Origin: an uncultured Bacilli bacterium
Lineage (GTDB): Bacteria > Bacillota_I > Bacilli_A > RF39 > UBA660
NCBI GenBank assembly: GCA_934096125.1
Contig: CAKOLB010000004.1
Coordinates: 55,117 to 119,116, forward strand
DNA length: 64,000 nt
Direction of reading: 5' to 3'
Made by a program: the position numbers and the translations under genes. Position 1 is the first letter of the stretch. Each line of letters begins with the position of its first letter. Positions 41,514 to 62,218 of this stretch are shown here, piece after piece. The notes beneath the pieces were generated by a model, which was not told where the DNA came from, ran no database searches, and saw only the letters and a program-made list of their open reading frames with translations.

Positions 41514-42089
41514 GTGGTGGAGGATGTTATGTTCGAAGTAGAATTAAATTATATACGAAATGAGAGAATAAGGGAGAGTGCTAAAGTTTTAATTGATGGA
41601 TTGCCAGAGTACTTTTTTCGGATTGCTGCCTCTTCAACGGGAAAATATCATCCTGCTTTTGCCTTGGGTGAAAGAGGTTTAGTAAGACATACTAAAGTAG
41701 CGGTGAGAATAGCGTATGAGTTATTTCAGATTATACCTTATGATCGTTTATTTTCTAGTGATGAAAAAGATATTATGATATTAAGTTTATTGATACATGA
41801 TGGAATAAAAAAAGGATTTACTGAAGAAAGATATACTAGGTTTGATCACCCTAATTTGATAGCAGATTATGTGGAGTTAAATAAAGGGAAAACTAGGCTC
41901 AGTGAAAAAGAGATAGATTTAGTAAAGCATGTTTTAAACTCCCATATGGGAAAGTGGAATACAAATCCTTATAGTAAGGTTGTGCTTAAGCTTCCAAATG
42001 ATAAATATCAATATTTTGTGCATATGTGTGATTATTTAGCTAGTCGTAAGTTTTTAAATGTTAATTTTAATGGTGATAATATAGAATAA
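41514..42089 (+). CDS. HD-domain protein
   Basis: H...HD motif (LLIHDGIKK). Confidence 0.5.
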   Translation: MVEDVMFEVELNYIRNERIRESAKVLIDGLPEYFFRIAASSTGKYHPAFALGERGLVRHTKVAVRIAYELFQIIPYDRLFSSDEKDIMILSLLIHDGIKKGFTEERYTRFDHPNLIADYVELNKGKTRLSEKEIDLVKHVLNSHMGKWNTNPYSKVVLKLPNDKYQYFVHMCDYLASRKFLNVNFNGDNIE

Positions 42090-42200
42090 AGATGGTAATA
42101 GTTGAAATAGCATAAGGTGCTAAGCAGATAAAACAATGTTAAATAATTTTTGGGATATTTCGTTTTTTGAAAAAAGGCATATAATATCTTAGGTGATAAC

Positions 42201-42247
42201 ATGAATGATAGAGCTTTAAAAAAGGTGGTTTTGGATGCCGGACATGG
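42201..42247 (+). pseudogene. Segment A (first ~16 codons) of an N-acetylmuramoyl-L-alanine amidase gene interrupted by mobile element 1
   Basis: MNDRALKKVVLDAGHG, then the frame breaks inside the Amidase_3 DAGHGG motif. The continuation GDDPGT lies at ~50580. Confidence 0.7.
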
Positions 42248-42315
42248 GAGATACTGTTATTCTACACAATGAATAGAAACTATCAGAACTAGTTGATTTA
42301 CATGAAAATTAAACT

Positions 42316-42346
42316 TTAAAGAGATATTTGAAAAAGTATCTCTTTT
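42316..42346. repeat. Perfect 9-bp inverted repeat upstream of mob (candidate oriT or terminator hairpin)
   Basis: aaagagata - tttgaaaaag - tatctcttt. Confidence 0.4.
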
Positions 42347-42373
42347 TGCATATTAAAAAAAAGGGGGAATTAT

Positions 42374-43633
42374 ATGAGTTATGCAATATTTAGAAGTCAA
42401 CCAATAAATACACTACAAGATTTAGCGCAAATTGGTTCACACAATAAAAGAGAAAAGAAAGCTTATAAGAGCAATCCAGATATAAAATTAGATAGAAGTA
42501 AGGATAATATAGAATTAGTAAAATGTGCTGAAAAATATGTTAAAAGATTTTACGAATTAACTAAAGACTATAAAAAAGAACATGAAGAAAGACAAAAGAC
42601 AATGCGAGAAGATAGAAAAAAATCCTATTATAAAATGCTTAATGATGCTAGAAATGTAGTAGCAGATGAATTGTTATTTACAAGTGATAGTTTATTCTTT
42701 AAAGATAAAAGTAAGAAAGAAATATTAAGGTGGGCTAATACTTGTATGGATTTTGTTTATAATGATTTAGGTTATACTAAAGAACAGGTATTACATTCTA
42801 CTATTCATATGGATGAAAAAACACCACACATTCATTGTGTAGTGATTCCACTAGTTAAAAAATTAGATAAAAGAACTAATACAGAAAGATATACTATCTC
42901 AAAAAAGCAATATATCAAAAATAACGAGCATTTAAGTGAATTACAAGATAAATACCATAATAGATTAGTTAAGGCTGGTTTTGATCTAGAAAGAGGTTTA
43001 AAAGGCAGTACAGCAGAGAATATAAATATAAAAGAATTTAAAAAAATGACTAGAAGGTTAGATAAGTCATTAGAGAAAAGTACACTATTATTAAATGATG
43101 ATTATAATGACTTAAAAGTTAAATTAAATAAAAGTAAACCTACAATAACTGGCAAGGAAGTTAAAATAGATAAAGATACTTATCAAACATTAAATAAATT
43201 TATGAGTACGGCTAAAAGAATAATAGAAGATATTCCTAAAACACAATCAATGGTAAAAACTTTAGATGAGTATACCAAAATCTTTAGAAGTACGCAAAGA
43301 GAGAATATTCAATTAAAGAAAGAAGTAAATAGACTTGAATTAGAAAAAGAAGAAATCAAACAAGAAAATAATAGACTAGAAAATCTTATGTATAATTTAC
43401 TTCAAAGATTAAAAGATTTATTTAAAAAAATTCTTCATATAGGTACTGATAAAGAAAAAGATAATGTATCAAAAGAAATAAAGTATCATTATGATAATAA
43501 TTATTATAACGATTTAGATTTATGCTATATTTCTAAGGGAACAACTAAAGAAAGAGATATATTTGAACACATTGGTTATATCAAAAAAGGGTATAACAAA
43601 GAAAAAGAAGAAGATTTTGATATAAATAGATAA
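42374..43633 (+). CDS. mob: MobV/Pre-family plasmid recombination/mobilisation relaxase
   Basis: N-terminal Mob_Pre pattern (MSYAIFRSQPINTLQDLAQIGSHNKRE...HMDEKTPHIHCVVIPLV), which is the His-rich relaxase motif. The C-terminus is a coiled coil. Confidence 0.85.
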   Translation: MSYAIFRSQPINTLQDLAQIGSHNKREKKAYKSNPDIKLDRSKDNIELVKCAEKYVKRFYELTKDYKKEHEERQKTMREDRKKSYYKMLNDARNVVADELLFTSDSLFFKDKSKKEILRWANTCMDFVYNDLGYTKEQVLHSTIHMDEKTPHIHCVVIPLVKKLDKRTNTERYTISKKQYIKNNEHLSELQDKYHNRLVKAGFDLERGLKGSTAENINIKEFKKMTRRLDKSLEKSTLLLNDDYNDLKVKLNKSKPTITGKEVKIDKDTYQTLNKFMSTAKRIIEDIPKTQSMVKTLDEYTKIFRSTQRENIQLKKEVNRLELEKEEIKQENNRLENLMYNLLQRLKDLFKKILHIGTDKEKDNVSKEIKYHYDNNYYNDLDLCYISKGTTKERDIFEHIGYIKKGYNKEKEEDFDINR

Positions 43634-43699
43634 GTCAAAACAAAAACGGACTTTTTTCGTGGTATAATAAAGAAAAACTTGTTATTTTTGGAGGTAGTT

Positions 43700-45910
43700 A
43701 TGAACAAAGAAAATAAAATTATAAATTTTAAAAATGAAGATTCAAAGAAAAATATTTCTTTAGAATTAGATAAAAAAATGATTTTTATTTACGGTAAAAA
43801 TGGTAGTGGCAAAACAACTTTTTCTAGATCGAACGATTTGGATAAAAAATATGTATTTAATGAAGACTTCGTATATAAAAATGTTTATATAATAGACGCT
43901 GAAGGAGCAAAAATTGATTCAGGTGTTAAAAATAATTTTTCAGAGTTGCTTGTTGGAGAAGATGTTGTTCTATTAAAAGAAAAACAAAATAAATTAGAAG
44001 AAATATATAAAGAATTAAATACTAAAAGTAATGATAATGAAACATTTATCAATTCTAGTTTAGCAAGTAATGGTATTCCAAACAGTTATAATTTTTTAAA
44101 GGAAAAAGTTGATGAAACTTTTAATTATGATGAAACAAAAACAATCGAAGAACAAATGGAGATATATAAGAGCGATTTAGAATTGGAACAGACTATTACA
44201 AATGATAAAGAGTTAGAAATCAATGTGAATCAAATAAAGAAACATGAGAATATTAAATTATTAATAGAAAAAATAAAAAAAATACCATTGTTAGAGGAGT
44301 TTCTTTTTTCAGAGGATTATCCAATACTATTGAAACTTAATTCTGATTTAGACATTATTAATACAAATATTCAAAACATTAAAAGTTTAGAAGAGTTAGG
44401 GAAAAAGAAAAGGGTAGAAAAAAATGATTTTTCTATTATAAGAGATTGTATAACATTACAAGAAAAAGTGGGAACTGATATTTGTGTATTATGTGGTAAT
44501 ACTGAAATTAAAGCAGGTATAGAAGAATGGAAGAAAATATTTCAGGACAAAACAGTAAATTTAAAAACGAAAGTAATATCAGAATTAAATGATATTCTAA
44601 AAAATTGTAAAACTATTATTGATGATAGAAAAGTATATGAACCTGTTGCACCTGGTACTATTAACAATATAATAATATTTATAGGAATTATAGAAAACGC
44701 TTTAAAAGAAGTGAATTTAGGCAATGTTTTAGAAATTAAATATCAAGAAATCGTAAGAGAAAAATATACTGAAGACATTATTCAAAAGTATAAAACTATT
44801 GCAAATTACGTATTAAAGAAATATAAAGATAAAACTATTTTCTTAAATTCATCACTTAAAAGTGTAGGTGGTAAAATAAAAGTAATAAAAGAAAACATAG
44901 AAAAAATTTTAAAGCTAAATGCTGACACCCATAAAGAATCAATAAACTCTATTCTTAAAGATTTGGGATTAGATAAAGAAATAACCGTTGGTGTTGATAG
45001 ACTAGGCGGTAAAATAAAATATTCACTAAATGTAGTTAATAACAATTTATCAAAATTGAGTGATGGGCAAAAACATAAATTAGCTTTGGCAATATTTTTA
45101 AATACTATTAAAAATGAAGATTTAAAAGGTAAAACAGTTGTGTTTGACGACCCTGTTGTTGCGCTTGATGAACTAGGATATCACTTTTTTAAACAATATG
45201 TTATAAAAAATATAATGAATAATCCTAACATAGAAGAATGCCCTAATCTTATTATATTAACTCACAACTTTAATTATCTTTATATACAAACAAGTAATAT
45301 AATAATTAGTCCTAATTTACAAGACAATACAAAAATATTGAAATTAAATTCAGATGGATTTAAAGAATTAGATTTTGAATTGTTTAAATTAGATGATATC
45401 GCATTATTTAAAAAATGCTTAGATAATATTAAGTATGAAGATGAATTGATAGACTTAAGTAGTTTATACAATAAAGTTTTTAGAGAATTTTTGGATTTAA
45501 AACTAAGAATACTTGGAAATCCATTAAATGGTAATCCAGCAGAAGAAATAAAGATAATAGTATCTGATGAACAAACAAGAAAATTGTTGCAGGAACAAAG
45601 TAATAAGTTAAGTAGTTATTCAAAAAATAAAAATATAACAATAGAAGAATCGAAAGAAGGTTTTTGCTTATTATCAGATATGCTAAAGACAATAGGGTTT
45701 GATGAATATATTCTGCCTCAAAACATTGATTCAATTAAAAATATTGTAAAGAGGGAAGAAATAATTTATTCAGATATATTTTATATTATTCATGAAATAG
45801 CAAATATTTTAAGAAATGAAGATAATAAATATAAAAATTATATAAATTATTTAAATCATCCAAGAATATCATTTACTAAAAATATGATGTCAACATCTAT
45901 GGATGCATAG
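43700..45910 (+). CDS. ABC-type ATPase with long coiled-coil insert and central CxxC (RloC/PrrC-like anticodon-nuclease candidate)
   Basis: Walker A GKNGSGKT near the N-terminus. CVLC (nt 44483-44494) lies midway to the ABC signature LSDGQKHKLALA and Walker B TVVFDDPV. A ~240-aa C-terminal domain follows. ATG 43700 has a GGAGGT RBS. Confidence 0.45.
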   Translation: MNKENKIINFKNEDSKKNISLELDKKMIFIYGKNGSGKTTFSRSNDLDKKYVFNEDFVYKNVYIIDAEGAKIDSGVKNNFSELLVGEDVVLLKEKQNKLEEIYKELNTKSNDNETFINSSLASNGIPNSYNFLKEKVDETFNYDETKTIEEQMEIYKSDLELEQTITNDKELEINVNQIKKHENIKLLIEKIKKIPLLEEFLFSEDYPILLKLNSDLDIINTNIQNIKSLEELGKKKRVEKNDFSIIRDCITLQEKVGTDICVLCGNTEIKAGIEEWKKIFQDKTVNLKTKVISELNDILKNCKTIIDDRKVYEPVAPGTINNIIIFIGIIENALKEVNLGNVLEIKYQEIVREKYTEDIIQKYKTIANYVLKKYKDKTIFLNSSLKSVGGKIKVIKENIEKILKLNADTHKESINSILKDLGLDKEITVGVDRLGGKIKYSLNVVNNNLSKLSDGQKHKLALAIFLNTIKNEDLKGKTVVFDDPVVALDELGYHFFKQYVIKNIMNNPNIEECPNLIILTHNFNYLYIQTSNIIISPNLQDNTKILKLNSDGFKELDFELFKLDDIALFKKCLDNIKYEDELIDLSSLYNKVFREFLDLKLRILGNPLNGNPAEEIKIIVSDEQTRKLLQEQSNKLSSYSKNKNITIEESKEGFCLLSDMLKTIGFDEYILPQNIDSIKNIVKREEIIYSDIFYIIHEIANILRNEDNKYKNYINYLNHPRISFTKNMMSTSMDA

Positions 45911-46069
45911 TCTTTTTTGAAAAATGGATATATAAAGATACATTTTAGTAACACACTACGATATTGACAGAGCCAATAACGATGTGTGCCAAGGGGATTG
46001 TCCCTTTGGAAACCCTATTAGCTCTATCGCCACTTTCATTGCTAAAGCAACAAAACGTGCCACGAGCTA

Positions 46070-46102
46070 AAAAGACTGACAAAAATTAATTGTCAGTCTT
46101 TT
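46070..46102. terminator. Bidirectional terminator between the ATPase gene and the convergent XRE gene
   Basis: 12-bp stem aaaagactgaca / tgtcagtctttt with a 9-nt loop. Confidence 0.75.
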
Positions 46103-46361
46103 CTGATGGAATATCATCAAATAGTTGTCTGATGTCTATTCCTAAAGCATCAGCAAATTTACCTATGGTTTCTAATGTTGGAGTTTTATCAATGCTTAAG
46201 CATTCTAAATCTCGAACATATCCATGAGTCAGTTCAGTTAAATCAGCTAATTCTTGAAGTGTATAACCACGTATAAGTCTGTATTTTCGAATGTTTTTTC
46301 TAACTTGAATAGATAAAATTGTTTTTGAATATCTTCTCATAGAAGTTATACACCTCCTCAC
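46086..46361 (-). CDS. XRE-family HTH transcriptional regulator
   Basis: HTH_3 pattern (RLIRGYTLQELADLTELTHGYVRDLE). Confidence 0.75.
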   Translation of the reverse strand: MRRCITSMRRYSKTILSIQVRKNIRKYRLIRGYTLQELADLTELTHGYVRDLECLSIDKTPTLETIGKFADALGIDIRQLFDDIPSEKTDN

Positions 46362-46448
46362 ATTTAAATTATTTCATAAAAATTTTAAAAAATATGTCGC
46401 CTGACAGAAGTTTTTGTGATATAATTAAAATGAAAGGAGACTGCTTTT

Positions 46449-46925
46449 ATGAAGAAATGCAAATATTGTCAAACTGAAATTGACTCAAAAGCAAAAATTT
46501 GCCCAAACTGTAAAAAGAAACAAGGTAAACCAAAATGGTTAATAGCTTTAATTGTTATTATTGTAATAATGATTATTGCATCTGTTGCTGGAGGTAACGA
46601 AGAGAATGCTAAGGAAGGAAATGTTTCAAACGGAGGTAATAAGCCAACAGAAAAATTTACTTATGAAGTAACAAAACAATATGCAGATGAATATGGTATG
46701 TCTTATTATATAGAAGGTAGTGTAAAAAATAATAAGGATAAAGATTATTCATATGTTCAAATTGAATTTGTTTGCTATGATGCAGAAGGCAATAACCTTG
46801 GAACTGCTATTGATAATACAAATAATTTACTAGGAAATCAGACTTGGAAATTTAAAGCAATGGCTATGTTTAGTGATGCTGAAACTGTTGATCATTGCGA
46901 TTATCATGAAATAACAAGCTGGTAA
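46449..46925 (+). CDS. Zinc-ribbon membrane-anchored protein of unknown function
   Basis: CKYCQ...CPNCKK zinc ribbon, one TM helix, then an extracytoplasmic domain. Confidence 0.4.
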   Translation: MKKCKYCQTEIDSKAKICPNCKKKQGKPKWLIALIVIIVIMIIASVAGGNEENAKEGNVSNGGNKPTEKFTYEVTKQYADEYGMSYYIEGSVKNNKDKDYSYVQIEFVCYDAEGNNLGTAIDNTNNLLGNQTWKFKAMAMFSDAETVDHCDYHEITSW

Positions 46926-47035
46926 AATAGTTGGAAGTCTTTTTAAGACTTCTTTTTGTTAGATTTTTTTACCAAAATAGTCGTTTTATATTTGTTTTAT
47001 GTTATAATAATATTTAATGAAAAAAGGGTGGTTTT

Positions 47036-47335
47036 ATGTATCAATTATTGAGTTTATTCAGTTTTCTTATTAGGGCATATTTGTGTTATTGCACAATAGA
47101 TAATATTCCAATATTAGCTAATCCGATATTAAATAGTATTTTAGGGGAAGTAATATCCTTATATACTATTTTGTGGGCAATAAGTTATTTTGTTGTTGGA
47201 AGATTTTATGATAAAGGTTCTGAACCCTTGTTAGGTGTTATTTTATATTTTATTGTATATGTTGTAATTCTGGGAATTACATATTTATTGTTGTTATTAT
47301 TAACATATATTGGAGTTTTACCAATAGTTATATAA
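47036..47335 (+). CDS. Small hydrophobic membrane protein
   Basis: 99 aa with three predicted TM helices. Confidence 0.3.
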   Translation: MYQLLSLFSFLIRAYLCYCTIDNIPILANPILNSILGEVISLYTILWAISYFVVGRFYDKGSEPLLGVILYFIVYVVILGITYLLLLLLTYIGVLPIVI

Positions 47336-47364
47336 ATAAAAAAACTTATCGTTGTGATAAGTTT

Positions 47365-47904
47365 TTATAGGTTTATTCTATCATCAGGTAATTTTGAGTA
47401 ATCATATTTTTCAGCACACATTTCTAAATCTTCGTAAATAGAGGTTAATTGTGCTAATATTTTTTCGGGTGGAAGTAATTCTTTATAATAATCATAATCT
47501 TTAAGTAAAAGCATCATTTGGAATATTCTTGTTCTGCAATCAGCAACTTTAGTTCTTTTCTCATAAGAATCTTCTAATAAATCCAATTGAGATTCTCTAT
47601 ATTGTTTTACTAATTCCTTTATATTTTTAGGAGTTTTATGTTTTGAAGTGTCTTTGAAACTATCTAGAATATCACTATAACCAGCAGTAGTTAAAAGAAA
47701 TTCTAAACTTATTTCTAATACTTCAGATAAACTTCTTAACATATCTATATCTGGTTTTTTAATATTACCTTTTTCAAGTTCATTATATGTAGAGTGATGT
47801 GTATTGATTAAACGAGCTACTTTTCTTTGAGAGTAGCCTTTTTTTGTTCTAGCAGTCCTTAATATTTTACTTAATTCTTCAAGATTAGCATTATTATTTT
47901 CCAT
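47365..47904 (-). CDS. XRE-family HTH regulator with C-terminal extension (repressor-like)
   Basis: N-terminal HTH (KKGYSQRKVARLINTHHSTYNELEKGN). It is divergent from the downstream winged-helix gene. Confidence 0.7.
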   Translation of the reverse strand: MENNNANLEELSKILRTARTKKGYSQRKVARLINTHHSTYNELEKGNIKKPDIDMLRSLSEVLEISLEFLLTTAGYSDILDSFKDTSKHKTPKNIKELVKQYRESQLDLLEDSYEKRTKVADCRTRIFQMMLLLKDYDYYKELLPPEKILAQLTSIYEDLEMCAEKYDYSKLPDDRINL

Positions 47905-48134
47905 TTAAACCACCTCTAAAATGCTTTCTTCCAATAACATAATACCATAACGAAAATTAAAAAGCAATAATTTTGTCGGTTATTCTTGACAAAATTATAA
48001 TTACAATGTATATTATAGTTGTCGGGCAATCTTGACAAAAAAGGGGGATAGTAATAAAGTAGATTGCTAATGCGACTAATGTTCTTTGAAAATTTACACA
48101 AGTCTTTAAAGGTTAATTAAAAGGGGGTGATAGC

Positions 48135-48638
48135 ATAACAGAATCTATAAAAGATGGGTTTTGGATTATACCTGCAAAAGTAGGTATAGATGATGCACTC
48201 ACATTACAAGATAAATTACTATATGCTCAAATCTTATCATTAACAAGACAAGATGGATTCTGTTTTGCTACTAATTCTTATCTATCTAATTTAAATAATG
48301 TTACTCCAAAAACAATTTCTAACAGTATTTCTAATCTTAAAAAAAATAATTATATACGAGTTGAATATCACAAGGAAAAAATAAATAAAGATAAAAGAAA
48401 AATATTTGTAACTGATAAGGGGGTATGGAAAACAAATCCTGGGGATATAGAAAAAAATGTTAATACCGGTATGGAAGATAATTTCCAATATAATAATATA
48501 AAGAATAAAAAGATAAAAAAATATAATACCAATAATAATGTTCCTTGGTGGCTAGATAAAGAAATTAAAGAAAATCCTGCATCTCTAGAAGAACAAGCAG
48601 AGATGGAAGCACTACTAAGCGAATTTAAAAAAGATTGA
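48135..48638 (+). CDS. Winged-helix replication-initiator-like protein whose start codon position is occupied by ATA (paralog of 52602-52895)
   Basis: The frame is open from 48117 to 48638 with no ATG, GTG or TTG in the first ~105 codons. The RBS AAAGGGGGTGAT sits 6 nt before ATA 48135. The translation aligns with the element-2 paralog (DGFWIIP...LLYAQILSLTRQDGFCFAT versus EGYVVMG...LLSIMLSLPDTWCYST), which starts with ATG at the equivalent position. Confidence 0.45.
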   Translation: MTESIKDGFWIIPAKVGIDDALTLQDKLLYAQILSLTRQDGFCFATNSYLSNLNNVTPKTISNSISNLKKNNYIRVEYHKEKINKDKRKIFVTDKGVWKTNPGDIEKNVNTGMEDNFQYNNIKNKKIKKYNTNNNVPWWLDKEIKENPASLEEQAEMEALLSEFKKD

Positions 48639-48937
48639 AAAGGAGTTGGTTTTATAAATAAATACAAGACTAAATCATAAAATTTAATAAAAAGGAAAAG
48701 GGGGAATTATAAGAATGGAGGTAGTACTTAAGGCAAAACACACATTTAAAACTGATATATCAAACGAAGAATTATTTAGAGATAGATTTAACGAGATATT
48801 GTTAAAAGTTATATTGCATCTTGAGCAAAATTACCAAAGTAGTTAAAAAAATTATAAATAACTATCAAAAAGGGGTATAATATAAGTTGTAGTCGATTTA
48901 GTTCTGATAGTTATACACAGAATTGGAGGATATAACT

Positions 48938-50533
48938 ATGAGACTAAGAGTTGGTATTTATGGGAGGTTATCACAAGAGGATATAGATAAGATAAACAAA
49001 GAAGATGAAAGTGAAAGTATCCAAAATCAAAAAAGAATGTTATTAGAGTATGCTTTAAAAAATGATTGGGATGTAGTTGATATTTATATTGATGAAGATT
49101 ATTCAGGTGCTGGAGTTTATAGACCAGAGTTTGAGAGAATGCTAAAAGATTGTGAAAATGGAAAACTAGATATAGTTTTATGTAAGAGTCAATCAAGATT
49201 CTCGAGAGATATGGAAATAATTGAAAGATATATAAATAACAAATTTAAAGAATGGAATGTTAGATTTATTAGTTTAGTAGATAATATAGATACTGATAAT
49301 AAATCTAATAAGAAATCTATTCAAATATTAGGACTAACTAATGAATGGTATTTAGAAGATTTATCAGATAACATTAAAAGAACAATTAGGAATAAAAAAG
49401 AGTCTGGACAATTTACTGGTTCATTTGCTCCCTATGGTTATTTAAGAAGTGAAGAAGATAAACACAAATTAGTTATTGATCCTATTGCTTCAATCATTGT
49501 TAAAAAGATATTTGAAATGTATAAACAAGGTAATGGTTATACTAAAATAGCAACTTATTTGAATGATACTAATGTTCCTAGTCCTTATGAACACAAAAAA
49601 GCAAGTGGTAGTAAATTTGTATGTGGAAATGTTGGAAAGGAAAAATCATATTGGTATTCAGATACAATTGCTAAAATCTTAAAAGATGAAGTATATATTG
49701 GAAATCTAGTACAAGGAAAAACAAGGCATATAAGTTATAAAAATAAAAAATCAGTTCCTGTTCCTAAAGAAGATTGGATAATTGTTAAAAACACACACGA
49801 ACCTATAATAGATGAAGATACTTGGAATATAGTTTCTGCTAAATTTAAAGGTAGGACAAAGCCAAGTAAATCTGGGGAAATTCATATGTTTACTAAAAAG
49901 GTTTATTGTGATTGTTGCAAAAAAATATTTTATAATGGTTATTCTAAATCAGGAAATGGGAACAAGCATTATTATTTAACTTGTAAGTCTAGAAAATCAG
50001 GGGTGTTTTGTGAAAATAATCTATCTATTAGAGTAGATAAATTAAAAGACTTTATCCTTAATGAGATTAATGAATATATCAAAGTTTATCATAATTCTAA
50101 AGCTTTAAATGAGAAATACCAAAAATTAAATACTAAGAATAATAAAAATGAGATTCAAGAACAAATTAAAACTTTGGAAAAACAACAAACTGAATTAGAA
50201 AAATCACAAAGTAAAAAGAATTCTTATTTAAGAAAATTATATGAAGATAGAATAGAGGGTTTCATTACTGATGAGCAATACAAAGCTTTTAGTAAAGACT
50301 ATGATGATGAATTAAATGAATTGCAAAACAGAATTCAATTAATAAAAGATGAAATCACTCTCTTAAATCAAAGGCACAGTGATATGATTGATAGAGATAA
50401 AATATTTAATAAATATAAATCTATAAAGGAATTAGATAGAAGTATATTAGATGATTTTATAGAAAAAATATATATCGGTGCAGTAGATAAAGAAACGAAT
50501 GAACGAGAAATAAATATTGTATGGGCCATATAA
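48938..50533 (+). CDS. Large serine recombinase (TnpX-like resolvase/integrase) of element 1
   Basis: N-terminal catalytic domain (RVGIYGRLSQED... with the serine in YGRLS, and ...SRFSRD), followed by a recombinase domain and a Cys-rich zinc ribbon (CDCCKK...CKSRKSGVFC). ATG 48938 has a GGAGGA RBS. Confidence 0.9.
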   Translation: MRLRVGIYGRLSQEDIDKINKEDESESIQNQKRMLLEYALKNDWDVVDIYIDEDYSGAGVYRPEFERMLKDCENGKLDIVLCKSQSRFSRDMEIIERYINNKFKEWNVRFISLVDNIDTDNKSNKKSIQILGLTNEWYLEDLSDNIKRTIRNKKESGQFTGSFAPYGYLRSEEDKHKLVIDPIASIIVKKIFEMYKQGNGYTKIATYLNDTNVPSPYEHKKASGSKFVCGNVGKEKSYWYSDTIAKILKDEVYIGNLVQGKTRHISYKNKKSVPVPKEDWIIVKNTHEPIIDEDTWNIVSAKFKGRTKPSKSGEIHMFTKKVYCDCCKKIFYNGYSKSGNGNKHYYLTCKSRKSGVFCENNLSIRVDKLKDFILNEINEYIKVYHNSKALNEKYQKLNTKNNKNEIQEQIKTLEKQQTELEKSQSKKNSYLRKLYEDRIEGFITDEQYKAFSKDYDDELNELQNRIQLIKDEITLLNQRHSDMIDRDKIFNKYKSIKELDRSILDDFIEKIYIGAVDKETNEREINIVWAI

Positions 50534-50576
50534 TTTAGTCCATACAGGACTTGTGTAGAATAAACATAACCTCCAC

Positions 50577-50806
50577 ATGGTGGTGATGATCCGGGGACTA
50601 TTGCAAATGGAATAACTGAAAAAGATTATACTTTGAAGATAACAAATTATATTCACAACAGATTAGATGAACTTGGAGTGCCAAATAAATTATCGAGGAG
50701 TACTGATGAGACTTTAGATGCCAGTAGTAGGCCACAGAGAATACAAAGTCTTTATGGAAATGGGAGTGATGTGATTGTTGTGTCTAATCACATAAATGCA
50801 GGGGGA
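50577..50806 (+). pseudogene. Segment B (~75 codons) of the interrupted amidase gene, lying between the two elements
   Basis: HGGDDPGTIANGITEKDYTLKITNYI...VIVVSNHINAGG is the Amidase_3 core. The frame then runs into element 2 (QDA, stop). Confidence 0.7.
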
Positions 50807-50928
50807 CAGGACGCGTAATATGTGGTTAATCGTAGGCGCAGTGTATAACTTTAATAAGCTTCTTATTTTACTGTATATGATGGTATAATAGATATATCAA
50901 ATAACTTTAAAGATGAGAGGTGAAAAGA

Positions 50929-51840
50929 ATGTTATATATAACTGGTGATACTCATGGAGATTTTTATAGATTTGGTCATTTAGGATTAAATGAAGGTGAT
51001 ATTATGATTATCTTAGGGGATGTGGGTATTAATTATTACTTAGATGAATATGATAAAAAGTTAAAGGAAAGATTAAAAAGATATAATTTTAAATTTTTCT
51101 GTATTCAAGGTAATCATGAAAAAAGACCAGAAAATATTTCAAGTTACCACGAAGTGGAAATGTTTGGCGGTAAAGTATTTGTAGAAGATGAATATCCTAA
51201 TTTAGTATTTGCTAAAAATGGAGAACTTTATAATATTGATGACAAAAGTATTTTAGTAATAGGTGGAGCTTATTCTATTGATAAAGATTATAGAATAAGT
51301 AAAGGATATCCTTGGTTCAAAGATGAACAATTAACTGAGAAAGAGAGACTAAATATATTGGACGAGTATTCTGGTAAACATGTGGATATAATTTTATCTC
51401 ATACTTGTCCATTAAGATATGAACCTAAAGAAAGCTTTAAATTAAGTTTGCCACAGATTGCGATAGATAAATCTATGGAGTATTTTCTAAATGAAGTAGA
51501 GCAAAGAGTAGATTATGGTAAATGGTATTGTGGACATTATCATTTAGAAAAAATTGTGGACAAGTTAGAGTTTATGTTTGGAAGAATTAAAAGTGTTGAC
51601 ACAGGAGAATTTATTCCTAAATATGATTTCCATAATGGCTACAAAATAGTTAGAGATGTATGTAGTCAAAAAGATTATAAATATTGTCCTGAATGTAAAG
51701 GAGATAATATAATTATAGAAAAAGGTGAAGGACATAATATTAATGGTTTAGATTTTATTGCTATCATTTGTAATGATTGTAAAAAAGTTTATGGATTTAA
51801 TGATGTTAATTATAAACGTAATTGTCCTAAAGAATTGTAA
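50929..51840 (+). CDS. Calcineurin-like metallophosphoesterase with C-terminal zinc ribbon
   Basis: GDTHGD and GNHE motifs. C-terminal CPECKG...CNDCKK. Confidence 0.65.
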   Translation: MLYITGDTHGDFYRFGHLGLNEGDIMIILGDVGINYYLDEYDKKLKERLKRYNFKFFCIQGNHEKRPENISSYHEVEMFGGKVFVEDEYPNLVFAKNGELYNIDDKSILVIGGAYSIDKDYRISKGYPWFKDEQLTEKERLNILDEYSGKHVDIILSHTCPLRYEPKESFKLSLPQIAIDKSMEYFLNEVEQRVDYGKWYCGHYHLEKIVDKLEFMFGRIKSVDTGEFIPKYDFHNGYKIVRDVCSQKDYKYCPECKGDNIIIEKGEGHNINGLDFIAIICNDCKKVYGFNDVNYKRNCPKEL

Positions 51841-51914
51841 CTGTGTTTACCAAATTTTAAAATTTATGCTATAATTAAGATGTAATAATTATTTGACTAA
51901 GTGTGGTGAGTAGT

Positions 51915-52550
51915 ATGGAGTATAGAAAATATTCATTTAGACATGCAGAAGATATTTTTAAAAACGATAAGGATTTTACTTATTTATGGAATGAAATTTT
52001 GGAAGTGCTTGATAGTATAAGCGATGATGATTTAATTAATGAATTTAACATTGAAACTAGAAAAGCAAAAAGCATTTCCGAAGCAATTAATAAATTAATT
52101 GCAAAAAGGCTAAGTGAAAAAGGATGGCATGAACAAAGTTACATTTTTGCTGACCCTGATTATTCTGATAATAAAGGTACATGGAGATTAGATTTTGCAA
52201 AAGATAATATTGCAATTGAAGTTGCATTTAATCATGGAGGAAATGTATCTTGGAATTTAATTAAGCCAGTATTATCTAGTGAATTAAATCATGTTAAAAA
52301 GGCAATACAAACTCAAGCTGGCGTTGTCATAACAGCAACTGATGCTATGAAAAAAGCCGGTGGATTTGATAATGCTATCGGTACCTATGAAAAATATGTT
52401 GAATATCTAAAACCATTAAATAATTTGTTAACCACACCTATGATGATAATAGGATTAGAACCACCAAAAAAGTTTACTATTGAGCAGAAAAAAGAAGATG
52501 GTAAAATGGTTGGACATGTTAAATTAAAAGAAGAAGATAATAACTTTTAG
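51915..52550 (+). CDS. Hypothetical protein, possibly a BglII/BstYI-family type II restriction endonuclease
   Basis: From memory, the block RLDFAKDNIAIEVAFNHGGNVSWNLIKPVLSSELNHV resembles the BglII active-site region (D-x9-E-V-Q/x...EL-H). The gene sits beside a GATC-type R-M pair. This is an unverified recollection. Confidence 0.3.
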   Translation: MEYRKYSFRHAEDIFKNDKDFTYLWNEILEVLDSISDDDLINEFNIETRKAKSISEAINKLIAKRLSEKGWHEQSYIFADPDYSDNKGTWRLDFAKDNIAIEVAFNHGGNVSWNLIKPVLSSELNHVKKAIQTQAGVVITATDAMKKAGGFDNAIGTYEKYVEYLKPLNNLLTTPMMIIGLEPPKKFTIEQKKEDGKMVGHVKLKEEDNNF

Positions 52551-52601
52551 ACTTACAATTTTGTGAGTCTTTTTATTTTGAAAAAGAAAGGATACGATAT
52601 T

Positions 52602-52895
52602 ATGAAAATAAAAACAAATAGAGAAGAGGGTTATGTAGTTATGGGTAACTATCATCTAAGAGATAAAAAATTAAGCTTAAAAGCAAAAGGACTATTATCT
52701 ATAATGTTGTCATTACCAGACACATGGTGTTATTCCACGCTAGGATTATCTAGTATTTGTGTTGAAAGCAGGGATACAGTTAGAAATATATTAAAAGAAT
52801 TAAAGGAAGCAAAATATTTAAAGGTAGTTGAAAATAGAGATGAAAATGGTAGATTTAATTATGAATATGTAATTTATGAAAAACCCTATATGTAA
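52602..52895 (+). CDS. Small winged-helix replication-initiator-like protein (paralog of the 48135-48638 ORF)
   Basis: MKIKTNREEGYVVMGNYHLRDKKLSLKAKGLLSIMLSLPDTWCYST. Confidence 0.45.
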   Translation: MKIKTNREEGYVVMGNYHLRDKKLSLKAKGLLSIMLSLPDTWCYSTLGLSSICVESRDTVRNILKELKEAKYLKVVENRDENGRFNYEYVIYEKPYM

Positions 52896-53069
52896 TAATC
52901 CATGGTATCATTACGGTTACATGGATTTCCGTATGCGGTTATTTATTCACAATAAATTATTTAGAAGTAATTAATAAAACAAATAGATAAAGTCGATAAA
53001 ACCTCTATCGATTCAAAAAAAGAGAAGGTTTTATAGTATAATTTCTCTTTTCATTGGTTAATTTAGCTA

Positions 53070-54467
53070 TTAAATAAATTCTTTTAATATATTTTCTAAG
53101 TATTTACTATTTAACCAAAAACAATGCTTTGTATATTCAGCTAATCCTGTTAACTTGTCTTTTACAGGTAATGGCAAAGTATCTTTTGAGTCTCTAGCAT
53201 GTGGTCTAACATGGCAAACTCCATTATCCCCGATTCCTGGAAAGTTAGTATTTCTTTTACCCATATTATCAATTGATTTAATAATATTTCCAGATAAAAT
53301 AATGTTTTTTGTATTATTCCACATATTTTTCACTTCATTTTCAAGTGTTAGTTCTGGCATGTTCCATAATTTTATACCACTAAAGATATAATCATTATCT
53401 TTCTTTTTAAATATAAAGAACATGTATTTTGTAGTTTCTAATTCTTCTTTTAACTTTGATTCTTCCCAATCAGTTGTTTTAAAATCCATATAATTGAAAT
53501 ATGGAAAAGGCATAGATTCTTTAATGTGTCCATTTTCTTCAACTCTGATTGTTCTTGGAACTATATTTGCTTTTTGGAATTCATCAGTATCACGAAGTCT
53601 AGATTTAACATTAAACATTCTAGCTATCAGTATTCCATTTAAATTTTTTGCATTAGAATCAATATTAAATTCATGCATTAATTGTTTTTGAGTTTTCCCC
53701 TGATATTTCTTGGTAACATTTTCAACAAATTCAGTAAATGATTCACCAGCATTTTTAATAACTTTTTCAACATCTTCATAATTTCCAATATATTTTCTAA
53801 CGAGTCCTGTCATATAAGAAGTTTTTAAACAAAATGCTCTTTGCTTTGCTTTAATTGATGAAAAAGGTTGTTCTCTAACGGATTTTTTATTTGCTCCTTT
53901 TGTACAAGCACCAAGATACATTGTATCTGCTTCTGATATCTCATGGGCTTTTCCTTGTTTAATTTTATTAATTATTGTTTCCCAATCCTTAATAATTATT
54001 GGTAAATCTTCTTTTGGAAATGTAAATAATAACTCGTGTGTTATTCTTAAATCATTTTTATTTTTGTGAGGTTCGTAAAAATACCAAATTATTTGAATTT
54101 TATTATTTTTAAACCAAAAATGACTAGAGTAAAATTCATTTTTATATTCATCCATATAATTAATTATGTTTAGAACAAGTCTTTCTTTAGCTGATAAAGT
54201 ATTGTCTTTGTTTTTCTTATACGGTGTAACTTTAAGTTCTATTCCCGCATCAATAAAGTCAGGCGCAGATATTGAATTAATGTTGTATCCATATACATTA
54301 GTTTCAAATAAATGACCAAAGAAAGCTTTATTAAACTTTTCATCATCTTTGTTATATTCATTGTTATAAATAGTTGTTACATTCATATTATTTAATTCTT
54401 TAAAAGTTTTTCCTAATGCACTTTTAGCTAAAATTTGAATTTCATCTTTTGTGTAACTTTTTGCCAT
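53070..54467 (-). CDS. Sau3AI-like type II restriction endonuclease (MutH-like fold, GATC-type)
   Basis: 465 aa with a Sau3AI/MutH-like N-terminal pattern (LAKSALGKTF...FFGHLFE...GIELKVTP). It is divergent from a cytosine-5 methyltransferase gene. Confidence 0.6.
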   Translation of the reverse strand: MAKSYTKDEIQILAKSALGKTFKELNNMNVTTIYNNEYNKDDEKFNKAFFGHLFETNVYGYNINSISAPDFIDAGIELKVTPYKKNKDNTLSAKERLVLNIINYMDEYKNEFYSSHFWFKNNKIQIIWYFYEPHKNKNDLRITHELLFTFPKEDLPIIIKDWETIINKIKQGKAHEISEADTMYLGACTKGANKKSVREQPFSSIKAKQRAFCLKTSYMTGLVRKYIGNYEDVEKVIKNAGESFTEFVENVTKKYQGKTQKQLMHEFNIDSNAKNLNGILIARMFNVKSRLRDTDEFQKANIVPRTIRVEENGHIKESMPFPYFNYMDFKTTDWEESKLKEELETTKYMFFIFKKKDNDYIFSGIKLWNMPELTLENEVKNMWNNTKNIILSGNIIKSIDNMGKRNTNFPGIGDNGVCHVRPHARDSKDTLPLPVKDKLTGLAEYTKHCFWLNSKYLENILKEFI

Positions 54468-54636
54468 AAAAATTTCCTTTCGATCTTGTTTTTATCTCAA
54501 AAATAATTTAAAATATATATATAGTGTTGATCTTTTTAAAATATTATTTTATAATTAATATGTAAGAAGTTGATCTTTTCGCTTAAATATATTATAATAT
54601 ATTTAAATATGTTTAACAATTATTAGGAGGCGTTTT

Positions 54637-55875
54637 ATGCAAAAAACAGTAGTAGAATTATTTGCCGGTGTTGGTGGATTTAGATGTGGATTAAATAATG
54701 TAAAATTAAAAGATAATAAAGTTATTGAAAAAGGTAATTGGAATTTTGTGTGGGCGAATCAATGGGAACCTTCTACTAAAACACAAGAGGCTTTTGAATG
54801 CTATTCAAAAAGATTTGGAAAGGATGATGTTAGTAATGTAGATATATTTCAAGTAAATAAAAAAGAGATACCTAATCATACTTTATTAGTTGGTGGTTTT
54901 CCATGTCAAGATTATTCTGTTGCACAGACACTATCTAATAGCAAAGGAATTGATGGAAAAAAAGGTGTTTTGTGGTGGGCAATTGCAGATATATTAAAAG
55001 TTAAGAAACCTCCATTTGTGTTTTTAGAAAATGTTGATCGCTTACTTCTTTCGCCAGCGAGTCAAAGAGGCAGAGATTTTGGAATAATTTTGAGAAGTTT
55101 TTATGAAAATGGATATGATTTAGAATGGCGAGTTATCAATGCGGGAGAATATGGATTTCAACAAAAACGTAGGAGAATTTATATAATTGCATATCACAAA
55201 TCAACTAAATATTGTAAGAAAATGAGAAAAATTGATAAGAAAAATATATTACTTAAGGAAGGTATTTTCATAAAACAGTTTCCTGTAAAAGAGAAAGAGT
55301 TTAACTCAAATGTATCAAGTATTTCAGAATATAAAGATTTAGTCGATGTTAGTGATAATTTTAAAAACCAATTTTATAATTCTGGAGTTATGATAAATGG
55401 TGAAATATATACTGCCAAATTAGAACATAATTGCGATAGTGTATATCAGTTAGGCAATTTAATAGAAACTAATAAGGTTGATGAAAAATATTTCCTTTCA
55501 AAAGATAGAATTGAGAAATTTAGAATATTAAAGGGAAGTAAAAGAATACCTAGAAAAAAGCCAAATGGAGATGATTACATTTATTCTGAAGGTTCAATGC
55601 CATTTCCTGATAATCTAAATGTTCCTGCTAGAACAATGCTGACTTCAGAAAGTGGAACTAGCAGAATGACACATGTTATAGAGGACTATAGAACTAAAAA
55701 ATTAAGATTTTTAACACCATTAGAGTGTGAAAGAATTAATGGATTTCCAGATAATTGGACAAATACTGGGATGAGTGATAAGAAACGATATTTCATGATG
55801 GGTAACGCTTTAGTAGTAAATGTTGTTGAAAAAATAGGGATTGAATTGGAAAAAATAGTAGAAATGGAAGAGTAA
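54637..55875 (+). CDS. DNA (cytosine-5)-methyltransferase
   Basis: Motif I LFAGVGG, motif IV GGFPCQDYS, motif VI ENV (FLENVDRL), and a C-terminal target-recognition region. Confidence 0.9.
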   Translation: MQKTVVELFAGVGGFRCGLNNVKLKDNKVIEKGNWNFVWANQWEPSTKTQEAFECYSKRFGKDDVSNVDIFQVNKKEIPNHTLLVGGFPCQDYSVAQTLSNSKGIDGKKGVLWWAIADILKVKKPPFVFLENVDRLLLSPASQRGRDFGIILRSFYENGYDLEWRVINAGEYGFQQKRRRIYIIAYHKSTKYCKKMRKIDKKNILLKEGIFIKQFPVKEKEFNSNVSSISEYKDLVDVSDNFKNQFYNSGVMINGEIYTAKLEHNCDSVYQLGNLIETNKVDEKYFLSKDRIEKFRILKGSKRIPRKKPNGDDYIYSEGSMPFPDNLNVPARTMLTSESGTSRMTHVIEDYRTKKLRFLTPLECERINGFPDNWTNTGMSDKKRYFMMGNALVVNVVEKIGIELEKIVEMEE

Positions 55876-55984
55876 ATGAAAAAATGTTAAAATTTGGTAA
55901 TTTATCTAAATAGTGTTATAATTTTATACAGAAGATATGCAGTATTTGTCTTTTTAAGATGGATACTGCATTTTTTTGAAGTAG

Positions 55985-56950
55985 GTGGTAGTATTGGATT
56001 CACTTAATTATGAAGTTTTTAAAAAAATAAAGAAATATTATAATGATAATTGCAAACCTTTAATTTTTGTTGGAGAAAAATTATTATCGCAGAATAACAA
56101 ATGTAAAATGTATTTTTGTGATGTTGATTTAAATCAAGAAAAAGAAAATTATAGAAAAGTTTTTCAAGAATATTTGGCACTTTATGTTAGAAATCATGAT
56201 TTGCTAAAATATTATGATAAGATTATAAAAAGTGAAACAGAAGATGAAATTTCAGAAGCTTTAATTTATTATGGAAATGATTTGTGGAATAATACCGTAT
56301 TGATAACTACAACTACACCAGAGACTTTAGGGATATATGGAGAAGCCATTAATGATTTTTATTTAAATATTGTTAAGAATGAAAATATAATTATCACTTA
56401 TTCAGCAAAAAGGGGGTATGGTGAACGTAATATAAAAGGGGTAGATGTAGTTGCATGTACTTGGAAAAAAGATAATCTTGTACTAATATTTTCTGAGTGT
56501 AAATTTGTCGAATCAATATATAAGGCGTCGTGTGGTTTATATAATGATATAAAGGGAACTCAATATGAATTGGCACATATAAGTAAAGATTATATAAACG
56601 GATATTCTACTTATATTGTTGATAATGCTCATTCAATTTTTGCAGAGAGTAATAATTCAGATAAAATTATAGATGTTTTGGACAAATTGAATAGTAGGAT
56701 AATAAATGGAAACAAGGCGATAGATGTGTTTAATGAATTAAACATAAAAATTCAATTTAATTTCTTTGCAATTTACTGTGATAATAAATTTACACCAGAT
56801 GAAAGACAAATAATGTTTGAAAAAGTATATAATGCTTTTTATGAAAATGTAAAATTAACAGGTATTAAAAATTATGATATGGAAATTGTGTATATACCTA
56901 TTAAAAATACAAGCTCTGTGGTAAAGGAATGTATGAGACAATGGAATTGA
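55985..56950 (+). CDS. HamA-like (DUF1837-type) protein with a PD-(D/E)xK motif; Hachiman-like component A
   Basis: GVDVVACTWKKDNLVLIFSECKF gives D...(E)xK spacing typical of PD-(D/E)xK nucleases. It lies immediately upstream of, and overlaps, an SF2 helicase gene. The TTG or GTG start follows an AGGTGG RBS. Confidence 0.45.
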   Translation: MVVLDSLNYEVFKKIKKYYNDNCKPLIFVGEKLLSQNNKCKMYFCDVDLNQEKENYRKVFQEYLALYVRNHDLLKYYDKIIKSETEDEISEALIYYGNDLWNNTVLITTTTPETLGIYGEAINDFYLNIVKNENIIITYSAKRGYGERNIKGVDVVACTWKKDNLVLIFSECKFVESIYKASCGLYNDIKGTQYELAHISKDYINGYSTYIVDNAHSIFAESNNSDKIIDVLDKLNSRIINGNKAIDVFNELNIKIQFNFFAIYCDNKFTPDERQIMFEKVYNAFYENVKLTGIKNYDMEIVYIPIKNTSSVVKECMRQWN

Positions 56951-59322: not shown

Positions 59323-59636
59323 AATCATGTCCGTTGACTGTCCTATAAATTTATGGTAAAATGGTAATATAGGATAAGTGTAAGAGATGCAAATTTATGA
59401 GAGGATTTTCCCTCTTTTTTTGTGTCTTTAAAAAAAATTATCTTTTTGAAAGAAAGGTAAATTTTATCTAAAATATTCTAAACTGTCGGAGACTATTAGT
59501 GGGTTTTAGGGATATTCCCTAACAAGCTAGATGGGTGTGTATACACCATGCTTGATATATTATATTACACGGGTATGTAACCTCAAAATAGGATTTAATG
59601 GTAATCTGAAATGTGGTATGAAATGAAAGGAGAAAT

Positions 59637-60209
59637 ATGGAATTTAAGTCAATGGAGAAGTGGCGTGTTTTACAGAAGTTTAAAATTAGCGAAAAACAGT
59701 ATAAGAGATTAGTGAAAAGATTAAAAAGAAGACATCCTAATGAAAGATGGATTGATGAACATTTTGCTCAAAATGGTGAAAGAGTAGTATATCTAAAATT
59801 AGAATTTGTAGAATGGATAGAAGAAGTTTATTTAAATAACAATCTATTTTATTTAGATGCTGAAATTGTTTTCTTTAAAAAGCAAATATTAAGACTAGAA
59901 GATGAATTAAATTTTCCTCATAGTGGGTTTGAATATGAAGATATATCTTTAAAAGATTTAAGGGAGTATTTTAATAAGAGTAAAGATGTGATAGGTGTTG
60001 CAATAAATAGAATGGAAAAGAGAAATGATAAATCATTCAAGTATATAAAAGATGCTAAAGTTATGATTAATAAAGAAGGCGTTAAATGGTTAAGTGAAAA
60101 CTATTTCCGTAAAGATTATTTAAAAAAGTTAGAATTTTATAAATTAGAACTTCAAAATGTTAAGAGAAAAAGAAATAGATTAAAAGAATATAGTATTTTC
60201 TATTACTAA
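59637..60209 (+). CDS. Hypothetical basic protein upstream of the recombinase (possible recombination directionality factor or regulator)
   Basis: 190-aa ORF, Lys/Arg-rich, with no recognised motif. Confidence 0.3.
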   Translation: MEFKSMEKWRVLQKFKISEKQYKRLVKRLKRRHPNERWIDEHFAQNGERVVYLKLEFVEWIEEVYLNNNLFYLDAEIVFFKKQILRLEDELNFPHSGFEYEDISLKDLREYFNKSKDVIGVAINRMEKRNDKSFKYIKDAKVMINKEGVKWLSENYFRKDYLKKLEFYKLELQNVKRKRNRLKEYSIFYY

Positions 60210-60463
60210 CTAGATTAGTTTGGAATATAACTAATTTTTTTATGTCCTAATTTTGATAATAAAGTCTTATAGTTGTTCTTATTTCATAAAATGAAAGGAG
60301 AGGTGTAGATTAGTGAATATAACTGAAACTTTCGATAAAGATAAAAACTTGGTTGAATTAATAGAGGAGTATTTAAAATTGATGTTAGAAAATAGTAAGC
60401 AATAAGAGTTTGTGATATAATGATATTGCTTATTGAAGTTATACACGTTGGAAGGAGTAGTAA

Positions 60464-62089: not shown

Positions 62090-62218
62090 ATAATAAAAAT
62101 AGGGTGGTAAAATTTGGTAATCACACAATCTTACCATCCCCTATACTATTTTTAGAAAAAATAAAAACGCAGTAAAATCAAGAAAAATGATAGCCTAATC
62201 ACATAAAATCTTTCCGGA

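Follow-up and report, generated by a model that had tools for sequence, protein, structure and literature searches.

What has broken up the amidase gene of this bacterium, and can the DNA responsible still move? The stretch analysed here (the window) is 64,000 nucleotides long (GenBank assembly GCA_934096125.1, contig CAKOLB010000004.1, positions 55,117 to 119,116 of the forward strand) and comes from an uncultured Bacilli bacterium of the RF39 lineage (UBA660). In it, a host gene that starts at 42201 (beginning MNDRALKKVVLDAGH...) is split into three pieces, with two elements between them. The first of these, Element 1, covers 42245-50577 (8333 bp) and has a G+C content of 25.4%, compared to 29.8% for the host. 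We consider it very probable that Element 1 is a site-specific integrative mobilisable element (IME) whose integration is driven by a recombinase and reversible, and this is the best explanation overall.

The split gene and its empty site

The 5' piece of the gene (42201-42244, plus strand) contains codons 1-14 and the CA of the His15 codon. The middle piece (50578-50805, plus strand) runs from the T of His15 through HINAGG and ends where the second element begins, and the third lies at about 62219 to 63133, 3' of that 11.4-kb element. Joined in silico, the three pieces encode a protein of 394 amino acids (aa) whose Amidase_3 domain is complete (profile positions 1-173 of 174) and which has four LysM domains and no signal peptide. 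Intact homologues of about 70% identity align over the first join with no insertion or deletion; one of them (P0083) reads KKVVLDAGHGGDDPGTIANGITEK there. The amidase fragments are free of stop codons and frameshifts in the window and in every occupied locus examined. A membrane-protein gene downstream of the amidase keeps its place in more than 30 related genomes; therefore, the amidase is a chromosomal gene of this uncultured gut Bacilli lineage and not a prophage lysin.

An earlier note on this DNA had proposed that Element 1 is bounded by the direct repeat ACATGG and that its precise removal restores the DAGHGGDDPG motif of the amidase. The left copy of the repeat lies at 42242-42247 as proposed, whereas the right copy lies at 50575-50580, the 50576-50581 of the earlier note being one base too high. 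The bases bordering the two copies differ (g/c before, g/t after), which makes the identity exactly 6 bp long. Deleting 42248-50580, or any equivalent interval, yields GAT GCC GGA CAT GGT GGT GAT GAT CCG GGG, as had been claimed. ACATGG is not enriched in the window (15 copies observed, 16.6 expected). Hence, the flanking repeat by itself proves nothing, and it is the join and the empty sites that carry the evidence.

As same-species genomes we used 24 contigs that encode, just upstream of the amidase, the exact 186-aa HD-domain protein found at 41529-42089 in the window. Their host flank is 99.6-99.9% identical to the window over 10 kb. At the position of Element 1 (site 1), about 6 of the contigs are empty (L092, L098, and L093 with three similar contigs), 8 carry Element 1 (L094 with two similar contigs, L095, L096, and L099 with two similar contigs) and 10 carry a sibling element of 8550 bp (L091 with five similar contigs, L097 with two similar contigs, and L100). 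The empty site predicted from the window is 178 nt long (42150-42244 joined to 50578-50660). It occurs as an exact match in L092 and L098, where the 5' piece of the gene is continuous with the sequence from 50578 onward, and L093 is identical across the junction. Because same-species genomes carry the empty site, the insertion at site 1 is real and precise. It is also conservative: the empty site equals the left part of attL, the core and the right part of attR.

The comparison extends beyond the species. Among 63 GTDB species representatives that are informative for the site (one, L036, was corrected by hand), 14 are occupied at the amidase His codon and 49 are empty, the latter with a compatible intact site. 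An amidase N-terminus incompatible with the join, which the earlier note had named as the outcome that would speak against it, did not turn up.

Elements are gained, lost and replaced at site 1 at the level of the population. The copy of Element 1 in L094 matches that of the window in 8333 of 8333 bases, while the adjoining host flank differs at 15 positions in 10,044 bp. At the rate of the host flank, zero mismatches within the element would be expected with a chance of about 4e-6. This would fit an element that is younger than the divergence of its hosts.

The amidase of the window copy is predicted not to be rescued by Element 1, because in-frame TAG and TAA codons lie directly upstream of the attR His codon; no replacement N-terminus from the right end of the element is found in the window. 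Among about 15 billion proteins searched, there was no intact amidase of the window species. In several relatives (L029, L071, L101-L106) the attR looks different. There, the element end contributes an ATG that is in frame and lies 3-10 codons ahead of the His codon (MPR followed by HGG, or MIIWTFPIPA followed by HGG), and gene callers predict a 457-aa amidase with a substituted N-terminus.

The position of the crossover

According to the earlier note, the crossover could not be placed more precisely than within the 6-bp identity. From the window sequence alone this is correct. With related elements and the symmetry of the attachment sites, the crossover can be narrowed to the CA of the His15 codon (42243-42244 in attL and 50576-50577 in attR, both on the plus strand). 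We infer this from three observations. First, the sibling element of L091 occupies the same attB, with attL reading ...GGACA before and CCCAAG after the junction and attR reading ...CTTGC before and CATGG after it; only CA is common to both. Second, the overlaps between attL and attR are ACATGG in the window and L083, CATGG in L084 and L088, CAT in L032 and L065, and GCCA in L036; with the sibling included, the overlaps of six elements intersect on CA.

Third, the arms of attP are symmetric around CA. We rebuilt attP in silico from 50546-50577 and 42245-42275 (...AACATAACCTCCA-CA-TGGGAGATACTG...) and scanned each possible centre for arm symmetry over 26 positions without gaps. Centred on CA, the window attP is symmetric at 19 of 26 positions, and the next-best centre reaches 12. 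The corresponding values are 19/26 for L085, 17/26 for L032 and 18/26 for L065, with next-best centres of at most 15. For the divergent L091 and L036, the gapless scan does not pick out CA, and the outer arm motif is in register by eye. In the window, the P half-site (50550-50575, plus strand) contains TTGTGTAGAAT at 50551-50561, and the P' half-site (42245-42270, plus strand) contains its reverse complement, ATTCTACACAA, at 42259-42269.

A directional serine integrase requires a non-palindromic core. CA is non-palindromic, and all insertions have the same orientation. The 6-bp identity of the two junctions is then incidental.

Mobility genes and backbone

The recombinase and the relaxase that the earlier note had recognised are both borne out by profile searches. 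The large serine recombinase (531 aa, 48938-50533, plus strand) has Resolvase (Pfam E = 6e-27), Recombinase (4e-25), Zn_ribbon_recom (1e-7) and DUF4368 domains. Its catalytic Ser12 lies in YGRLS, which aligns with the catalytic region of TnpX, TP901-1 and 3G13, and the core CA is found 42 bp past the end of the gene. The MobV (Mob_Pre) relaxase (419 aa, 42374-43633, plus strand) scores 109.3 bits against NCBIfam NF041497 (cutoff 100; profile positions 1-186 of 187), covers the full profile of Pfam PF01076 (Mob_Pre; positions 1-196 of 196) and matches the MobM structure 4LVI with E = 2e-10. Its motifs, HMDEKTPHIH at residue 145 and the N-terminal HNKR at residues 23-26, are of the HxDExxPHxH and HxxR types. 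A hairpin with a T-run (AAAGAGATATTT-GAAA-AAGTATCTCTTT; 42318-42345, plus strand) lies 29 bp upstream of mob. Candidate functions are an origin of transfer (oriT) and an insulating terminator, and a hairpin is kept at this place, with changed stem sequences, in four related elements.

A scan of all open reading frames (ORFs) of Element 1 against Pfam, NCBIfam, PHROGs and PADLOC revealed no type IV secretion system (T4SS) genes; the mobility genes are the MobV relaxase and the recombinase only. Because Element 1 has its own integrase and a relaxase but no coupling-protein or mating-pore genes, we class it as an IME. Its sequence marks it as a canonical IME of the MOBV1 type, site-specific and with a serine recombinase, and hence as belonging to an already known class.

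The remaining genes comprise one cargo gene and a conserved backbone. The cargo is a 736-aa AAA_13-type ATPase (43700-45910, plus strand; Pfam AAA_13 E = 1e-13). It may act as a single-gene defence against phages, and it matches PDC-S06, one of the candidate systems of PADLOC (E = 1e-11). First in the backbone is a small HTH_3 regulator (84 aa, 46086-46340, minus strand), followed by a 158-aa membrane protein with a zinc ribbon and FxLYD (46449-46925, plus strand; NF038353 E = 2e-22; phrog_14275) and by a predicted membrane protein of 99 aa (47036-47335, plus strand) that has no family match and is conserved in a related element (L080). A cI/RstR-like helix-turn-helix (HTH) repressor (179 aa, 47365-47904, minus strand) is divergent from the recombinase operon.

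Next comes an HTH_36 protein that resembles the N-terminal domain of replication initiators (48135-48638, plus strand; phrog_19658 E = 4e-15). It is 80% identical to a 151-aa protein of L080 and its frame is open. There is, however, no ATG, GTG or TTG start at the expected place; the GTG start of L080 is GTA here. Within 48118-48200, a strong ribosome-binding site (AAAGGGGG) stands ahead of an ATA codon at 48135, which may serve as a non-canonical start. Directly upstream of the recombinase gene lies an ORF of 43 aa (48715-48846, plus strand). It is 100% identical in L080, and all relatives examined have an ORF of 43-48 aa at this position. One could speculate that it encodes a directionality factor or a regulator.

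Target range and cargo

What does the recombinase recognise? All six occupied loci for which upstream DNA is available have a recombinase that is 46-52% identical to that of Element 1 and ends about 45 bp before the His codon, and three of these six also show a Mob homologue. Closer relatives are found as well. Recombinases of 96% (P0121), 86% (P0122), 59% and 52% identity each lie directly upstream of an Amidase_3 fragment. P0122 occurs in more than 130 contigs, and identical copies of this protein sit in at least five target amidases, whose mutual identities are 28-82%. One of these targets is a CwlD-like paralogue (TIGR02883, 193 bits, below cutoff). All P0122 insertions lie at GGN-CA-TGG, and removing them in silico gives an open frame each time. 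The consensus of the motif-coding DNA is GATGCTGGN-CA-TGGNGGNGANGATCCNGG. That the same recombinase sits in such diverse amidases at GGN-CA-TGG argues that the enzyme reads the DNA that codes for the motif and not one particular locus.

The window itself contains a CwlD-like Amidase_3 paralogue (27157-27807; TIGR02883, 194 bits, cutoff 221.55). Its motif DNA reads GATGCAGGA-CA-TGGCGGG and is unoccupied. In L087, a sibling element is found inside a CwlD-like paralogue of this sort.

Over 45945-50697, the backbones of Element 1 and of the P0121 element have 91% of their nucleotides in common, and the cargo of the two differs. Cargo differences are concentrated between mob and the small HTH gene. 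Where the window has the AAA_13 ATPase, the relative with 96% recombinase identity carries three unannotated genes (L080, 156-2343), and the relative with 86% identity, the 9.22-kb P0122 element, carries DUF4160 with Gabija-like GajA and GajB (L083-L090, 3885-6961). The backbone on either side of this interval stays 77-91% identical. The comparison indicates that the interval between mob and the HTH gene is a slot in which anti-phage cargo is exchanged.

A different arrangement at the same codon is found in L006 (2250-4080; also L068, 9091-9796), where the amidase promoter and the initial 15 codons are present twice. The first copy stops at GGACAT, followed by aacaaag; then come about 1.7 kb with two ORFs and a second promoter with the intact gene. 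The two ORFs resemble an AbiEi/AbiEii pair by eye only. The arrangement resembles a small insertion into that codon which supplies the gene with a substitute 5' end.

How Element 1 may move

In the mechanism that we propose, the 531-aa recombinase would have joined the attP of a circular element to a chromosomal attB that encodes the zinc-binding DAGHGG motif. Strand exchange at the CA of the His15 codon would lead to a conservative insertion and split the gene. Excision to a circle would be controlled by the divergent repressor and the module consisting of the HTH_36 gene, the 43-aa ORF and the recombinase gene. The MobV relaxase would then nick oriT, for which the hairpin in front of mob is a possible site. 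The mating pore would come from a conjugative helper located elsewhere, and once in the recipient, the element would be inserted again by its recombinase, at the same codon of the amidase gene. Since strong purifying selection acts on the catalytic motif that the target DNA encodes, members of the family could insert in many species and also in a CwlD-like paralogue.

Several points weigh against this account. The circle junction of attP has 0 matches in IMG/VR, in JGI metagenome contigs and in the fetched loci, searched with a 33-mer and then with a 24-mer that also covers the 86%-identity sibling; excision is therefore deduced only from the population polymorphism. An alignment of the regions upstream of mob gave no recognisable nick motif or nick-site consensus, and no oriT was identified. 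The hairpin is AT-rich, and its fold is barely more stable than that of shuffled sequence (z = -1.8); it may just as well be a terminator shielding the element from the promoter of the amidase gene. There is no helper conjugative element within the window. The window copy could be impaired, given that its HTH_36 gene has no canonical start codon. Finally, the CA core presumes that the relatives share the crossover position.

Some of these points can be read in another way. Element 1 could have been mobile once and now be fixed in the lineage as a remnant that neither excises nor transfers. The missing canonical start of the HTH_36 gene would agree with that, as would the absence of an attP junction from the public contigs searched and of a helper element from the window. 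We nevertheless regard a remnant as improbable. All ten backbone ORFs are open, and both att half-sites are intact and symmetric. Element 1 is identical across samples although the host flank has diverged, and empty and differently occupied alleles coexist within the species.

One could also argue that Element 1 has been domesticated. In this case, its regulated excision would rebuild the autolysin and act as a switch, for example in terminal differentiation or lysis. CwlC is a mother-cell lysin without a signal peptide, and the rebuilt amidase, which also has none, is comparable to it. A CwlD-like paralogue lies nearby. Excision rebuilds the full Amidase_3 profile, neither the window nor the other occupied loci examined show decay of the fragments, and an intact protein of the species was missing from the databases searched. 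There are also precedents: in skin in sigK, SPbeta in spsM and gin in gerE, an element with a serine recombinase splits a gene that precise excision rebuilds (PMC4191935, PMC5595907).

It is unlikely that this argument holds for Element 1, for the following reasons. First, the precedents are fixed, developmentally regulated and without relaxases, whereas site 1 is polymorphic within the species, being empty or occupied by Element 1 or its sibling. Second, a relaxase and an exchangeable defence cargo are hallmarks of horizontal movement, and the same recombinase protein is found in many hosts. Third, two separate elements would need to excise jointly, and nothing points to a host that sporulates. 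Hence, we favour an IME that integrates reversibly at site 1.

Relation to known elements

The earlier note had assigned Element 1 to the Tn4451/Tn4453 family of mobilisable transposons (from C. perfringens and C. difficile), with a different cargo. The statement about the cargo is right, since Element 1 carries an AAA_13 ATPase and not catP, and a way of working like that of a mobilisable transposon is broadly supported. Both are mobilisable, combine a large serine recombinase with a MobV (TnpZ-type) relaxase, have a 2-bp core and are expected to form a circle. The 2-bp exchange is of the type described for Tn4451 (PMC5704250), and the recombinase falls into the DUF4368 or TndX-like clade (PMC10083194). 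Membership in the family, on the other hand, is very unlikely.

The catalytic domain of TnpX (PDB 2MHC) is about 34% identical to that of the Element 1 recombinase over 116 aa (E = 1.8e-15), a comparison that covers only the 120-aa catalytic domain available in PDB, and this is no better than the identity to the TP901-1 integrase or to C. difficile 3G13. TnpX has about 707 aa, compared to 531 aa here. The core is CA and not GA, the dinucleotide that Crellin & Rood and Lyras et al. reportedly found at the ends and the circle joint of Tn4451. For the ends of Tn4451, the review by Guedon et al. confirms a 2-bp identity only, and it describes integration specificity as low (PMC5704250). In contrast, every relative of Element 1 examined sits at the same Amidase_3 His codon, which amounts to strict site-specificity.

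The gene set and gene order differ too. Family scans found no tnpV, tnpY, tnpW or catP, no second resolvase and no cat gene. Tn4451 is ordered tnpX-tnpV-catP-tnpY-tnpZ-tnpW, whereas Element 1 reads mob, cargo, HTH, two membrane proteins, HTH, HTH_36, 43-aa ORF and recombinase. The recombinase gene thus comes last, at the opposite end of the element and behind a repressor-type switch. Among plasmid proteins, the relaxase comes closest to the MobV of small plasmids from Bacillus, Priestia and Clostridium, with at most 38% identity over the full length, and none of its top 30 plasmid matches is annotated as tnpZ. The identity criterion for a family of TnpZ-type relaxases is at least 40% (PMC12084326). 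An RS_A site upstream of the relaxase gene is a further feature of Tn4451/Tn4453. Since TnpX orthology and the GA core are lacking, target specificity is not low, and the genes and their order are different, Element 1 would work like Tn4451 but is not a member of its family on any feature compared.

The best named full-length relative of the recombinase is TndX of Tn5397 (33.6% identity, covering 98% of the query). DUF4368 is the C-terminal domain of both, and in both cases one recombinase sequence is found in several target genes. Unlike Element 1, Tn5397 is conjugative. The multiple targets of the Element 1 family are, in addition, all the same motif-coding DNA in one protein family. The clade of DUF4368 recombinases has been called multi-targeting by Durrant et al. 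2022 (PMC10083194). For the recombinase of Element 1, the pattern of insertions argues for motif specificity rather than promiscuity.

Close in design are the streptococcal IMEs in rumA, IME_SsuNSUI084_SNF2 and the MOBV1 IMEs of Faecalibacterium (PMC5704250, PMC12084326). They share with Element 1 a single large serine recombinase, a MobV relaxase and the lack of a T4SS. Their insertion also disrupts a protein-coding gene, with very short flanking repeats, and they too carry defence cargo. The class of site-specific serine-recombinase IMEs has been reviewed (Guedon et al. 2017; PMC5704250), and MOBV1 IMEs with defence cargo are abundant in gut Firmicutes (PMC12084326). Element 1 differs in its host, an uncultured gut Bacilli lineage, and in its relaxase, whose identity to the plasmid MobV proteins found does not exceed 38%. 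The literature searched holds no report of the Amidase_3 DxGHGG His codon as an IME target.

Tn6215 of C. difficile is likewise mobilisable, has a serine recombinase and a TnpZ-like Mob, and lies inside a gene (PMC3870246). It has a 3-bp flanking repeat, and its empty site was detectable while a circle was not (PMC3870246). Tn6215 differs from Element 1 in its size of 13 kb, its erm(B), its truncated Mob and its target, a gene for a transcriptional regulator.

A prophage remnant or phage satellite that is not mobilised by conjugation is extremely unlikely and was dropped: the cI-like repressor, the HTH_36 protein resembling replication initiators and the serine integrase (phrog_95, E = 6e-109) are all common in temperate phages, but capsid, terminase, portal, tail and lysis genes are all missing from the PHROGs and family scans, Element 1 has only 8.3 kb, its MobV relaxase scores above the curated cutoff, and a megablast of the whole element matched no GenBank phage (nor any PLSDB plasmid).

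What the locus offers

An appealing aspect of this locus is that it yields an exactly delimited natural recombinase set, with attB, attP, a CA core and a same-species empty site as control. A recombinase family that reads the DNA of a catalytic motif would be able to integrate across species and paralogues, and sets of att sites like this one can serve as starting material when recombinases are engineered (compare Durrant et al. 2022). The locus also illustrates that defence genes, here a putative one coding for an AAA_13 ATPase and elsewhere Gabija, are carried by small mobilisable elements in uncultured gut Bacilli. With two occupied sites, a single autolysin gene becomes a docking hotspot for elements that carry defence genes. 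Knowing of it helps to annotate metagenome-assembled genomes in which amidase 'pseudogenes' would otherwise be reported.

A more far-reaching idea is that the codons of DAGH-GG and HINAGG-G, the two best conserved among the catalytic motifs of Amidase_3 genes, are universal landing pads for two lineages of serine recombinases in gut Bacilli, and that the autolysin gene is a permanently occupied docking platform for exchangeable anti-phage cargo. We find this doubtful. If it were true, the failure to see an intact gene, together with the undamaged pieces, would fit reversible excision, for example a switch that couples excision to autolysis.

The second element and site 2

The second element (50806-62218) is unrelated to Element 1 and splits the same amidase after HINAGG (site 2). 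Its serine recombinase (60464-62089) shares 33% identity with the Element 1 enzyme, and in many species site 2 has recombinases that are 48-96% identical to the one found there in the window. The cargo consists of a MutH-type restriction enzyme with a C5-methylase, a metallophosphatase, a BglII-like nuclease and a Hachiman system (HamA at 55985-56950, HamB at 56929-59322).

The join at site 2 follows from the homologues, which show three G and require HINAGGGDGAEV. A join that reads HINAGGGG, with four G, was rejected for this reason. The crossover is GG, and its exact position is ambiguous. A 13-bp direct repeat, CTAATCACATAAA, is found at 50784-50796, in the host arm left of site 2, and at 62196-62208, inside the right end of the second element. 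As the crossover it was rejected too, since it would break the reading frame; the repeat may reflect similarity between a B arm and a P arm.

None of the same-species contigs that extend to site 2 has it empty, and at least four different elements occupy it. The window has Hachiman and restriction-modification (RM) genes there, L093 has CBASS, Fic, HipA and a type I RM system, L091 has N6_Mtase/Eco57I, and L001 has a different right end.

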